DNA of 64,000 bases from an uncultured delta proteobacterium (lineage in GTDB: Bacteria > Desulfobacterota > BSN033 > UBA1163). The translations under genes and the position numbers were made by a program. Where the stretch lies: contig CAVPSJ010000011.1 of NCBI GenBank assembly GCA_963708295.1, positions 64,001-128,000 of the forward strand, in the 5' to 3' direction. Below the pieces are notes generated by a model, which was not told the DNA's origin, did no database searches, and worked only from the letters and a program-made list of their open reading frames with translations. Shown here piece after piece: positions 9,853 through 58,871 of this stretch (its first letter is position 1; each line of letters opens with the position of its first letter).

Positions 9853-11490
9853 ATGGAAAAACAGAATTTGCAGGCGATCATTGAAGAGATTTGGCCAAAG
9901 GTGAAGAAAAAACACCTCTATCCTGAGATTCCAATGCCCAAGGTTAAGGAGCCTTCTGCAAAAAAAGAAGAACGGACTTCAGAGGACGAAGACGTTGGAT
10001 TGGAGATGAAGCAGAAACAACTGACCATCAATGGTGCTTTTGTCCTGCAAATGAGGGACAAGATGCCAGAAAAAAGGGTTATCGAGGCTCTTCTTGATCA
10101 TGGGGTTACCCACTACACTTTCTGTCCATGGGATTTTCACACGCACCTCAGACTCTACGCGGCGGCGAAGAAAGTGGTCGGTGATAAAGAATTATCCAAA
10201 CAAGTGGCTAATCACTTCATCGATGTCATTGCAGATACTCATTGCGTGAGAAAAAGGTCTACGGAGATCCCAGAATTGCACCGAAACTTGAAAAAAGGGG
10301 CCGTCGACGAAGTCATTGCGTCCCTATATCAAAGGATTTGGGGAATGGATTTGGGAATCCACCCCTCCAGAGGGGGCGTAAAAGGACACAGAGATATCGT
10401 CCGACGGCTGGCACGAATCCCCTATTTGGATCGATCACGCTGGGGAGAGAGCATTCAGAAGTTTGCGCGGACGATCAAACCCCTGCTTATTGAAGAACAA
10501 GAGGAGCAAGGAGATCGAGGAGGGAAAGGGGAGCGCAATCCTCAAGGGGAACACGATTTAAACCACTATTCGTCCGAAGAGATCGATCAGGGTTTAAGGG
10601 ATTACGCAAGACAGACCATGACTTTGTCCGAATTTAAGGATGTCGTGGAGGACTTTTCGGATGAACTAAGAGGGACAGGTTATGGTATGGAAGGGGGGAT
10701 GGGAAGGGGGAACGGGGAGCCCGTCGATGCAGATGTGCTTTTTTACATGAAATTGGCAGAGAATTATTCCATCCCCTTAAAGAAAATGCCCCTGGAAGAG
10801 AAAGGTGCTCTCCATCCTTATTCTCATTGTCCATGGGAGATCGGAGCGCCCTTTCAAGATGTGGATATATGGACCAGTTTTGGGAAGCTCATGCCTGGGA
10901 TTACCCAAGTTTGGACAAAGCGGGAGGGCAAGGGAAGAGGAAAAATGGAAGGCACTCCAGATTGCTTAATCGTTATTGACTCCTCAGGAAGCATGATCAA
11001 TCCTCGGAAGAGTCTCTCTTATGCTGTCCTGGGAGCCGCTTGCGCCGCCAATGCTTACCTTCACAATAATTCAAAGGTGGGCGTCTATAATTTTAGTGAC
11101 GCTCCTATGGGAGGAAAAGAGATTTTGAATTACATAGACCGGCGGGAGGATATTTACCGGGCCCTTTGTAAGTATTTCGGCGGAGGAACAGCATTGGAGT
11201 TGGAGGATTTAACGCCTTTAATCCGAGGCAAGAAAAAGTTGGACCTCTTCATCATTACCGATATGAAGATCACCAACCTGGAGGCGCTGATCGGATTTTT
11301 CGGACAGATCCAGAACCGGGTGACGGCCGTTCACATCGGCGAGAATCCGTATGCGGCTCGATTTGAAAAGGCGTTTGAGAAAAGAAAGAACATCAATATC
11401 TATACCGTGAAGCGGACGGAAGATATTCCCCACATTGTCCTTGGAAAGATCCGAGAATATTTTAGTTCATCAGCTTCAAAAAAATCGTGA
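9853..11490 (+). CDS. VWA-domain protein with an N-terminal degenerate HExxH-like region
   Basis: MIDAS motif IVIDSSGSM plus GGGT and IITD; N-terminal LDHGVTHY..CPWD; acidic/Gly-rich linker. Confidence 0.8.
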   Translation: MEKQNLQAIIEEIWPKVKKKHLYPEIPMPKVKEPSAKKEERTSEDEDVGLEMKQKQLTINGAFVLQMRDKMPEKRVIEALLDHGVTHYTFCPWDFHTHLRLYAAAKKVVGDKELSKQVANHFIDVIADTHCVRKRSTEIPELHRNLKKGAVDEVIASLYQRIWGMDLGIHPSRGGVKGHRDIVRRLARIPYLDRSRWGESIQKFARTIKPLLIEEQEEQGDRGGKGERNPQGEHDLNHYSSEEIDQGLRDYARQTMTLSEFKDVVEDFSDELRGTGYGMEGGMGRGNGEPVDADVLFYMKLAENYSIPLKKMPLEEKGALHPYSHCPWEIGAPFQDVDIWTSFGKLMPGITQVWTKREGKGRGKMEGTPDCLIVIDSSGSMINPRKSLSYAVLGAACAANAYLHNNSKVGVYNFSDAPMGGKEILNYIDRREDIYRALCKYFGGGTALELEDLTPLIRGKKKLDLFIITDMKITNLEALIGFFGQIQNRVTAVHIGENPYAARFEKAFEKRKNINIYTVKRTEDIPHIVLGKIREYFSSSASKKS

Positions 11491-11798
11491 CTCTTTTCCG
11501 TCAACCTGTAAGCTATTTCAAGACTTTATCTCATCCTTGAAGAATAGGAGAGGTTAGGGAAACACTCTCGCGCGGAGACCAAGGGTGTGATGGCGGACCC
11601 AATTCTTAGAAACGAATTGGAGTTAGAGTGCTAGTCGCTAAGTTTGCATTTCGTTTTAGATACGCACCTGAATTGGGTACGGCAGCGAAAGAGACTGGAT
11701 TGAGCTAATAGCCTTTAAGAACTATTGTCGTATTGCTAAGGATCGCGTCCCAGAAAAGTGTCCAGCAAAAACCCAAGTAATTAATATTGTTATATAAA

Positions 11799-11894
11799 TT
11801 TAAAAGGGATCAGTTAGAGGAGGGCTATAACTGATCCCTGCCGGTACATCAACCGGGGGTAAAACAAGGAGGTGATACGGTTTGATGCACCAGC
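11799..11894 (-). ncRNA. Candidate two-hairpin sRNA with anti-SD loops
   Basis: 16-bp stem whose G-U pairs exist only on the minus strand, loop contains UCACCUCCUU; perfect 12-bp terminator stem with CCCUCCUC loop followed by Us; TTGATT-17-TATTTT upstream. Confidence 0.65.
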
Positions 11895-11945
11895 TACATA
11901 TAAAATAATATATTATGTGGAGAAAATCAATAATGGAAGGGTTTC

Positions 11946-11961
11946 TGGCACGGGATTTGCT
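11946..11961 (+). promoter_or_regulatory. Sigma54 (-24/-12) promoter
   Basis: TGGCAC-GGGAT-TTGCT, an exact consensus match 40 nt upstream of the CDS at 12001. Confidence 0.8.
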
Positions 11962-12000
11962 GTTATATTAACAGATCGATAACAAATCGAAAGGACAACT

Positions 12001-12543
12001 ATGAAAAAGATTCTATCTATTATCTCAGTGCCTTTTCTTCTGGTTTTCCTCACCTCTCAACCCTCTTTTTCGCAGGTTTATAAGTGGGTCGATGAAAAAG
12101 GAGTGGCACACTTTACGGATGATATCACTCAAGTTCCGGGAGAATTCCAAGCTAAGGCTGAGAGAATCGAAGCCCAGCAGGAAAGGGAAGACACAAAATT
12201 TGAGGGGGAATTAGCACCTACGAAGAGAGAAGGCTCCTACAAGGACCAATTGGGAAGGGGGGAAGACTATTGGAAGGGGCGCGTCGAGGAGTGGAGAAAA
12301 AAACTAAGAGAACAACAGGATAAGTTGGAGCTCTTGAGGACCAATTATAACGGGTTAACAGAAAAGTATAACGATTCAAGAAGCCTGGTAGAAAGGACAA
12401 GTATTCGCAGAGAAAGAGAAAAGATCAAGACGGAAATGGGCGAGTGCAATGCTCAAATTGATGAAGCAAGGGGGATGATGGATAAAAAGATTCCAGAAGA
12501 GGCTGAACTTTATAAAGCGAAGCCAGAATGGATAAAACAATAA
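12001..12543 (+). CDS. DUF4124-domain exported protein
   Basis: Signal peptide, then VYKWVDEKGVAHFTD motif, then coiled-coil C-terminus. Confidence 0.85.
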   Translation: MKKILSIISVPFLLVFLTSQPSFSQVYKWVDEKGVAHFTDDITQVPGEFQAKAERIEAQQEREDTKFEGELAPTKREGSYKDQLGRGEDYWKGRVEEWRKKLREQQDKLELLRTNYNGLTEKYNDSRSLVERTSIRREREKIKTEMGECNAQIDEARGMMDKKIPEEAELYKAKPEWIKQ

Positions 12544-57722: not shown

Positions 57723-57738
57723 TGGCACAAATTATGCT
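57723..57738 (+). promoter_or_regulatory. Sigma54 promoter of the major pilin gene
   Basis: TGGCAC-AAATT-ATGCT; pilA genes are typically RpoN/PilR dependent. Confidence 0.8.
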
Positions 57739-57874
57739 ATTTAAGAATTTCAAAATTACAATAAAGAAAAAGGAGGTGAAAGCTAAAAGGCAAATGTCCT
57801 GAACCGTTTTTGAGAGAATTCGATAATCTAAGCAGGCTTAGATTAGCCTAATAAACAAAAAGGAGGTTTAAATT

Positions 57875-58308
57875 ATGTTACGGAGAGAAAAAGGTTTTAC
57901 ATTGATTGAGTTGTTAATCGTTATCGCCATCATCGGTATTCTGGCAGCCATTGCCATTCCGATGTATAAGACACAAACGATCAAAGCGAAGACTGACCGA
58001 AGTCACAAATGGCATGAGTAATGTTGCAAGTGCTGTAGCAGCATACATGCAGGAAACAGGTGGTTGGCCTACTGCCACGGACTAAAGCATTAATTCAAAG
58101 CAGTTTGGGCGTTTCAACAGGTGCCCTTGGTAGAGTTTCTCTTATGGGTGTGAACAATGGAGTAATCACTGCGACAGTAACAGCCATTGATGCTACTGTT
58201 GATAACAAAGATTTAGTAATGCAGCCAACTTCAAATACGGATGGATCTATCACTTGGAATTGGACTACCAGCAACGGTATGCCACCGGCGTATATCCCCA
58301 AACGATAA
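57875..58308 (+). CDS. pilA: Type IV major pilin (frameshifted)
   Basis: [29 protein letters not shown]; AGGAGG SD; C-terminus [14 protein letters not shown]. Confidence 0.85.
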
Positions 58309-58428: not shown

Positions 58429-58871
58429 ATGAAAAAGAATAAATCAGGTTTCACACTGATCGAGATGTTGGTAGTGATCGCAATCATCGGCATTTTGGCT
58501 GCGGTTGCCCTTCCTCTTTATAAGGGTTATACAATAATGTCTAAATTATCTGAAGTGGAGAACGCGATGTCCACTGTTGCAAGTGGCGTTACAGGATATT
58601 ACGAAACTCAAAACTCTTGGCCTGATTGTCCTACGATACCTGCGGTTGGAAACAGCTTAGGAGTGGCATTGGGAGCTATCGGAAGGATTAATACACTATC
58701 GGTTTCAGGTGCAGATGGCAGATCACTGCGCAGGTACAAAATATTCATCCAATGGTGGATGGCAAGACATTGACATTGACACCCAGTACGGATACTGATA
58801 GTTCAATGACATGGACTTGGGGATGGTCCCCGGATTTTCCTCCCCAGTTTAGGCCTAAGGATGGTAGATGA
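58429..58871 (+). CDS. Second PilA-like type IV pilin (frameshifted)
   Basis: [24 protein letters not shown]; similar to pilA along its length (KLSEV..MSTVAS, SLGV..GAIGRI, TWTW). Confidence 0.8.

Follow-up and report, generated by a model that had tools for sequence, protein, structure and literature searches.

Several small regulatory RNAs of Gram-positive bacteria, including RsaE/RoxS, 6C, LhrC and IsrR, carry C-rich or CU-rich single-stranded motifs that pair with the G-rich ribosome-binding sites of many mRNAs, and LhrC is reportedly a multicopy RNA placed under the control of the LisRK two-component system. In 6C, C-rich motifs located in loops bind the mRNA targets (PMC6486639). The streptococcal csRNAs (PMC3091779) occur as related copies within a genome, measure approximately 50-200 nt and fold into two stem-loops, the second of which is the terminator; an unpaired stretch is complementary to the Shine-Dalgarno (SD) sequence and places CAU opposite the start codon, and their promoters are controlled by a response regulator via direct repeats that replace the -35 element (CiaR repeat TTTAAG-N5-TTTAAG). 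The cuckoo RNAs of Alphaproteobacteria (CcsR/RSs0680, SmelC397) are described (PMC4615179) as adjacent hairpins, found in several copies per genome, whose stems change compensatorily and whose loops carry an anti-SD-like CCUCC, the defining loop motif being CCUCCUCCC.

The window analysed here, a 64,000-nucleotide stretch of a 4.95 Mb genome assembled in 20 contigs (91% complete), contains a two-hairpin locus that is best read as a trans-acting small RNA of a new family, often present in multiple copies. The best explanation of its distribution is a family confined to one uncultured class of Thermodesulfobacteriota, a group related to sulfate reducers, which is not known to have a regulatory RNA on record; Rfam 15 has no match, and full-text searches, one of them covering Desulfobacterota, yielded no paper describing such an RNA. 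By design the RNA is closest to the streptococcal csRNAs and also resembles the alphaproteobacterial cuckoo RNAs, and it is a member of none of the described families, with no covariance-model match to cuckoo, RsaE, 6C, csRNA or any other Rfam family. Indeed, a search of the whole window against Rfam 15 at gathering scores returned nothing except two tRNAs, and at E-values up to 10 the interval 11450-12050 gave no minus-strand match overlapping the sRNA. An earlier sequence-only reading, which proposed an undescribed sRNA here, had named a match to a known Rfam family as what would speak against it, and Rfam 15 holds none.

With the csRNAs (PMC3091779) the RNA shares sibling copies, a length in the same range, two stem-loops with the terminator second, an unpaired sequence complementary to both SD and start codon (CCAUAUCACCUCCUU in most syntenic copies) and repeat-bearing promoters, here TAAY-N7-TAAT-N7-TAAT in 13 of 62 copies, a likeness of design and not of homology. 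However, in place of the CiaR repeat the paralogs have TAAT with an 11-nt period, the syntenic copy has an ordinary -35 element and no repeats, and the anti-SD sequence lies within a hairpin loop rather than between hairpins; the csRNAs also belong to another phylum and resemble the RNA neither in sequence nor by model (no Rfam match). Adjacent hairpins, anti-SD-type loops, a covarying stem and multiple copies are features in common with the cuckoo RNAs (PMC4615179). Unlike them, the RNA has no CCUCCUCCC in either loop, its loops being UAUCACCUCCUUGUUUUACCCC and UAGCCCUCCUC with motifs that differ from each other (CACCUCCUU...CCCCC and CCCUCCUC), its second hairpin is invariant in sequence, and it comes from a different phylum with no Rfam match. 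C-rich or CU-rich single-stranded motifs likewise recall RsaE/RoxS, 6C, LhrC and IsrR, with which there is no homology; an 11-nt copy of the 16S tail stands here against their short UCCC or CCCC, and the host belongs to a Gram-negative Thermodesulfobacteriota lineage that encodes Hfq, the gene for which is present in the window genome at C15:155623-155808.

Sibling sRNAs with anti-SD loops are a recurring design, which is extended here to a new phylum, with some copies probably under two-component control. The unusually exact copy of the 16S tail raises the question of whether such an RNA is selective for certain mRNAs or affects the initiation of translation globally, and the family, being defined by a model, an alignment and a distribution, is ready for curation and for tracking in metatranscriptomes.

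Overall architecture of the locus

Read on the minus strand from 11930 to 11802, the locus consists of TTGATT, a 17-nt spacer, TATTTT, approximately 7 nt, hairpin 1, hairpin 2 and UUUU (Table 1). The sequence-only reading had reported the minus-strand sequence, two G-U pairs and a TTGATT-17-TATTTT promoter that sets +1 at the base of the stem, and all of these were recovered: the sequence is present letter for letter in the window, the promoter places +1 at about 11895/11894 at the base of hairpin 1, and both G.U pairs are found in hairpin 1, whose stem arms are GCUGGUGCAUCAAACCG and CGGUUGAUGUACCGGC and whose loop is UAUCACCUCCUUGUUUUACCCC. A single base separates the two hairpins in the window copy. 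In some other copies an insert of 4-7 nt (UUCUUG) sets them apart. The minus strand of a 101-nt stretch folds with an energy of -42.3 kcal/mol (z = -9.6), which none of 200 shuffled sequences equals, and the plus strand of the same length with -36.8 kcal/mol (z = -4.4).

Table 1. Coordinates of the sRNA gene, its parts and its neighbours in the window.
Feature	Position	Strand	Description
sRNA gene	11802..11895	-	~93-94 nt, from predicted +1 (A11895 or G11894) to end of U tail; from sequence and fold
-35 hexamer TTGATT	11925..11930	-	TTGAT(T/A) in syntenic copies
-10 hexamer TATTTT	11902..11907	-	17-nt spacer; ~7 nt ahead of the stem
Hairpin 1	11840..11894	-	17/16-nt stem with one bulged A, 22-nt loop; covarying stem
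Loop-1 motif AUCACCUCCUU	11866..11876	-	11-nt identity to the 16S 3' tail of the window genome (anti-SD)
Second C-rich loop-1 motif CCCCC (within UUUUACCCCC)	11855..11859	-	last C doubles as first base of the 3' arm
Hairpin 2 (terminator hairpin)	11806..11838	-	GGGAUCAGUUA, 11-nt loop UAGCCCUCCUC, UAACUGAUCCC; 11-bp stem; from fold
Loop-2 motif CCCUCCUC	11817..11824	-	invariant in 62/62 aligned copies, part of them collected by a pattern that includes it; CCCUCCU in sister family
U tail, intrinsic terminator	11802..11805	-	UUUU directly 3' of hairpin 2
Convergent ORF	9853-11490	+	545 aa, no Pfam match
Sigma54-type promoter TGGCAC-GGGAT-TTGCT	11946..11961	+	adjacent to and divergent from the sRNA promoter; directed towards DUF4124
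DUF4124 gene	12001..12543	+	180 aa; Pfam PF13511, E = 1.5e-08; divergent neighbour

The gene is intergenic, flanked by plus-strand ORFs (9853-11490 and 12001-12543) that leave a gap of 510 nt, and possesses its own promoter and intrinsic terminator, as do trans-encoded base-pairing sRNAs. The protein encoded by the divergent neighbour has an N-terminal hydrophobic stretch that is read as a putative signal peptide. The surroundings of the main copy are syntenic across the family, with the 3' end of the convergent 545-aa gene downstream and the sigma54 motif, the DUF4124 gene and a PilZ gene upstream; in the sister family the sRNA is also divergent from a DUF4124 gene, there with no sigma54 motif in the nearest 200 nt. 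The ATG of DUF4124 stands, in most relatives, only 12-17 nt after TTGCT, the sigma54 -12 element, which would give the gene an almost leaderless transcript; the gap found in the window and in L003, the locus of the closest relative, amounts to 39-44 nt and contains an AAAGGA SD sequence.

No same-strand gene is found downstream of the sRNA, which is therefore not a leader. Small-ORF, type I toxin, riboswitch or leader, and mobile-repeat readings were rejected, as the peptide is unconserved, no same-strand gene follows and synteny is conserved.

In relatives, a 223-aa SAM-methyltransferase gene (Methyltransf_25, E = 5e-20) is located between the 545-aa gene and the sRNA, at 676-1347 in L010 and at 685-1356 in L003, where it is split into three frames. 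The window has unique ORF-free DNA in its place (11491-11798). The L010 methyltransferase protein gave no credible match to window 11400-11900, nothing in window 11549-11779 aligned with the L003 locus, and window 11500-11800 has neither another copy in the genome nor a credible Rfam match.

The convergent layout of the locus could also be that of a cis antisense RNA, which would pair with read-through from the plus-strand operon (the 545-aa ORF and, in relatives, the methyltransferase gene) and trigger its processing or termination. Between the end of the upstream plus-strand genes and the sRNA lie 310 nt in the window and up to approximately 950 nt in relatives, with no plus-strand terminator among them; a weak site at 11440-11455 falls within the 545-aa ORF, whose end is at 11490. 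Read-through RNA would therefore be fully complementary to the sRNA. However, paralog copies found in unrelated contexts have the same loops and the same hairpin 2, and the sRNA is unchanged where the methyltransferase gene is broken, as in one relative, or missing, as in the window. Nor does such pairing account for conserved loops on a variable stem, and we consider this reading quite improbable.

Distribution of the family

A BLAST search with a 136-nt query detected the element in 32 of 36 same-family genomes, with 79-90% identity and one to five matches in many of them, and in none of the 24 genomes from other families. The window genome itself has a second copy on another contig. A covariance model, R1, was built from 62 non-redundant copies; its E-values are rough, and it scores 109.1 bits at G000:C11:75799-75898, which corresponds to window 11799-11898. 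R1 matches 49 of 54 other same-family genomes and 5 of 8 sister-family genomes, and has no match in 5 genomes representing a third family of this class or in 146 genomes from other families of the phylum, counts in which all genomes are metagenome-assembled (MAGs), related genomes are non-independent and absence from an incomplete MAG is uninformative.

An exact-pattern scan of 185,579 species genomes returned 59 loci, all labelled as MAGs titled Thermodesulfobacteriota, Deltaproteobacteria, Syntrophaceae or Syntrophorhabdus except for one 'uncultured bacterium'. A second pattern retrieved 18 metagenome contigs, and R1 scores all 18 of them at 75-105 bits. In some genomes a pair of sRNA copies is found approximately 2.5 kb apart on one contig (L085/L084 on DATIGG010000651.1, G033:C651).

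Covariation and transcribed strand

The 62-copy alignment shows both-sided changes at 13 of the 15 pairs of helix 1. Paired cells make up 88.9% in helix 1 and 93.7% in the whole structure, compared with 28-42% when the partners are slid, and the observed covariation score is reached by 0 of 500 shuffles. The sequence-only reading had proposed a homologue search with covariation analysis as a check, and such a search found homologues in 49 of 54 family genomes and covarying pairs in helix 1. The RNA thus has the covariation-backed conserved secondary structure of a trans-encoded base-pairing sRNA. The element is a conserved gene and no chance fold, and we regard the locus, with high confidence, as a genuine structured RNA gene.

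Helix 2 is far more static: 9 of its 11 pairs never vary in the 62-copy alignment, part of which was gathered by a pattern that fixes hairpin 2, and 8 of 11 never vary in the metagenome set; copies found by BLAST show helix 2 to be equally invariant. Changes appear in 17 paralogs and sister-family copies, where UA is replaced by CG at two pairs and U.A by U.G eight times at another pair. Across the family the hairpin-2 stem is sequence-invariant, with GATC in each arm, and hairpin 1 drifts freely in comparison.

A stem that does not drift within the family is also what would be expected if the inverted repeats acted as DNA, forming enhancer-binding-protein sites (an upstream activating sequence) for the divergent sigma54 promoter. 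The window genome encodes rpoN, and 41 of 62 copies have TGGCAY-N5-TTGCW on the opposite strand, separated from hairpin 2 by a fixed distance of approximately 107 nt. It is at this conserved distance from the sigma54 -24 element that the invariant palindrome GGGATCAGTTA-N11-TAACTGATCCC begins, and such a spacing is a usual one for upstream activating sequences of sigma54 promoters. However, all 19 paralog loci keep hairpin 2 although a sigma54 motif lies within 500 nt of none of them, so the palindrome is not explained as an activator site of that promoter. In addition, the sister family, with no sigma54 motif within 200 nt, changes the stem by the compensatory UA to CG replacement, U.G wobbles occur (eight times at one pair), hairpin 1 covaries in an RNA-like manner, and a DNA site accounts for neither the conserved promoter nor the U tail nor the loops. 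On this evidence a DNA site is highly improbable.

The transcribed strand is identified as the minus strand by an excess of G.U cells over A.C cells (92 versus 37, or 74 versus 22 minus the two end pairs), by the R1 score (109 bits on the minus strand versus 20 bits on the plus strand) and by the conserved promoter and U tail, which exist for the minus strand only. The orientation originally assigned to the RNA is therefore upheld by G.U pairs, promoter and U tail alike.

Transcribed from the plus strand, the locus would produce GGA-rich loops, GAGGAGGG and AAGGAGGUGA, that could belong to a CsrA sponge of the CsrB/RsmZ type or to a leader with a small ORF. This strand also folds well (z = -4.4), AGGA motifs are present in its loops, and a 36-aa ORF (11872-11982) begins within loop 1. 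A CsrA gene (PF02599), which a CsrB/RsmZ-type sponge calls for, was however not found in the 91%-complete genome, and the cell counts, model scores, promoter and U tail all point to the opposite strand. As for the 36-aa ORF, its GTG overlaps its own SD sequence, its frame crosses the sigma54 promoter and the conservation of its product is only that of the promoter DNA. We judge a functional plus-strand RNA to be extremely improbable. DNA-site, plus-strand, cis-antisense and small-ORF readings all fare worse than a trans-acting sRNA made from the minus strand.

The loops and the 16S tail

The 16S gene of this genome ends in GGAUCACCUCCUUUCU, and AUCACCUCCUU in loop 1 is therefore a copy of 11 nt of the anti-SD tail, which makes precise the match to the canonical 16S 3' end noticed in the sequence-only reading. 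Of the 62 non-redundant copies, 38 have the exact 11-mer and 43 have CACCUCC; sister-family copies retain UCACCUCC, GUUUCACCUCCC and CCCUCCU, and other paralogs retain CUCCUU and/or a C run. Two columns of the CCCCC motif are invariant and the rest nearly so (alignment A2), and the run is retained in paralogs that lack the anti-SD motif. The loop-2 motif CCCUCCUC is retained in BLAST-found copies as well. Overall, the loops are the most conserved columns of the alignment, and the possibility raised at the outset that they might not be conserved in relatives did not materialise.

Syntenic copies have AAACCAUAUCACCUCCUUGUUUCACCCCCAUUU as loop 1 and CCCUCCUC as loop 2, and within the family loop 1 is nearly invariant along all of its approximately 33 nt. 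In most syntenic copies CAU precedes the anti-SD motif (CCAUAUCACCUCCUU), which makes the loop complementary to an idealised start region, AAGGAGGUGAUAUG. The window copy has CGU at this position (CCGUAUCACCUCCUU).

The invariance of loop 1 and of the hairpin-2 stem exceeds what SD pairing needs, which is compatible with a true mimic of the 16S tail or with the involvement of another partner, perhaps a protein or the ribosome itself. As a free-standing mimic of the 16S 3' tail, the RNA would be an abundant decoy that competes for all strong SD sites, or would draw off a tail-recognising factor, such as a maturation or decay RNase, a hibernation factor or a toxin. Were this the case, translation would shift globally to weak-SD or leaderless mRNAs, maybe including that of the divergent DUF4124 gene. 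Consistent with a mimic, the 11-nt identity extends to AUCA, outside the core CCUCC, the exact 11-mer recurs in those 38 of 62 copies, loop 1 is conserved over approximately 33 nt, and a search of the genome revealed no long complementarity that would single out a target. However, paralogs and sister-family copies retain CACCUCC, CUCCUU or C runs only and no full tail, which fits with plain pairing to G-rich sites, and no candidate partner protein gene adjoins the sRNA. In addition, known sRNAs with anti-SD loops target specific mRNAs (PMC3091779, PMC6486639). We consider a 16S mimic unlikely.

Promoters and terminators

At the position equivalent to TATTTT, relatives often have TATAAT or TATTAT as the -10 hexamer. 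Among 62 non-redundant copies with sufficient upstream sequence, 39 have TTGAnn, 16-18 nt and TAnnnT correctly placed. The sRNA promoter of the window is absent from the list of a generic promoter scan because its 8 matches at 12 positions fall under the threshold of 9. Hairpin 2 is followed by TTTT in 53 of 62 copies and by TTT in 58 of 62, and in paralogs by 7-9 T.

The second copy and the paralogs elsewhere retain the C-rich loops and have different promoters. One class of paralog promoters, which includes that of the second copy in this genome, is devoid of a -35 element and has instead three to four direct (C/T)TAAT repeats that follow an 11-nt period, end at the expected -35 place and are succeeded by TATA(C/T)T; the copies fitting TAAY-N7-TAAT-N7-TAAT are the 13 of 62 mentioned above. 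Direct repeats laid out in this manner ahead of a -10 element are typical of OmpR/PhoB-type response regulators, and the TAAT repeats of the paralogs look like a response-regulator box. No response-regulator gene was found in the 12 kb surrounding the second copy. TAAT repeats were observed in L002 (approximately 1425-1480; G000:C4, upstream of the second copy), L019, L032, L041 and L044, and also in L067-L069, L074, L081, L085, L086 and L090.

Proposed mechanism and candidate targets

We favour, with moderate confidence, a mechanism in which the sRNA (~93 nt, its own transcript) acts in trans through its C/U-rich loops on SD regions and represses translation. Transcription would start at the near-consensus sigma70 promoter and end at hairpin 2 and the U tail, giving an RNA predicted to display three single-stranded C/U-rich motifs, of which loop 1 contributes AUCACCUCCUU and CCCCC and loop 2 contributes CCCUCCUC. 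All three would pair with GGAGG-type SD regions of several mRNAs, possibly helped by Hfq, and the pairing would bar the 30S subunit and lower translation; a response regulator may switch the paralogs on. Transcription, mRNA pairing, repression and the target set are inferred here from sequence, fold and conservation. We count as support that Hfq is encoded in the genome, that the second copy and the paralogs retain the C-rich loops under different promoters, and that csRNAs, cuckoo RNAs and 6C work by such pairing (PMC3091779, PMC4615179, PMC6486639).

Sites able to pair with the loops are numerous in the genome, where AAGGAGGTGA occurs 69 times, AAGGAGGTGAT 23 times and AAGGAGGTG at 137 sites, 42 of them followed 3-13 nt further on by an ORF of at least 50 aa. 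These counts agree with the original remark that any strong SD would also match the loop. Genes that follow AAGGAGGTGA or a longer match include those for a cold-shock protein, an HU-type protein, dodecin, a GYD protein and RuvX, identities that come from five of nine ORFs chosen for Pfam, a second cold-shock-like ORF being left out. Complements of loop 1 of at least 11 nt are found at 67 sites, one of which is the locus itself; genome-wide, no extended target emerged, the longest complement outside the locus being 14 nt, about what chance would give (approximately 0.8 expected by our own estimate). Duplex-energy target prediction over 5212 crude ORF starts was dropped because it could not tell candidates apart: values between -30 and -40 kcal/mol were common and correlated with 16S-tail pairing (r = 0.57). 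DUF4124 was likewise discarded as a target of the sRNA, its leader offering only AAAGGA in the window and being almost absent in most relatives.

Among public runs, a single RNA run matched, with 0.08 of words, and X1, X3, X2 and X5 gave 7, 0, 0 and 2 contigs, respectively, which are without end or strand information. Just one RNA-library contig, 209 nt long, touches the locus; it overlaps 11862-11915 only and runs on into unlike sequence, the promoter DNA of a relative.

The sequence-only reading had pointed to a perfect 10-nt match in the leader of pilA. The motif, AAGGAGGTGA, is indeed present at 57770-57779, and pilin as a target is unsupported: the site is 96 nt upstream of the pilin start codon and, the pilin ORF starting at 57875, is not its ribosome-binding site. 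The first pilin gene (57875-58308) is read in three overlapping frames (48, 44 and 82 aa) and thus has two frameshifts, which make it either a pseudogene or the product of assembly indel errors, and a second pilin ORF is found at 58429-58773. The pilin region also contains a sigma54-like TGGCAC-N5-ATGCT at 57723-57738.
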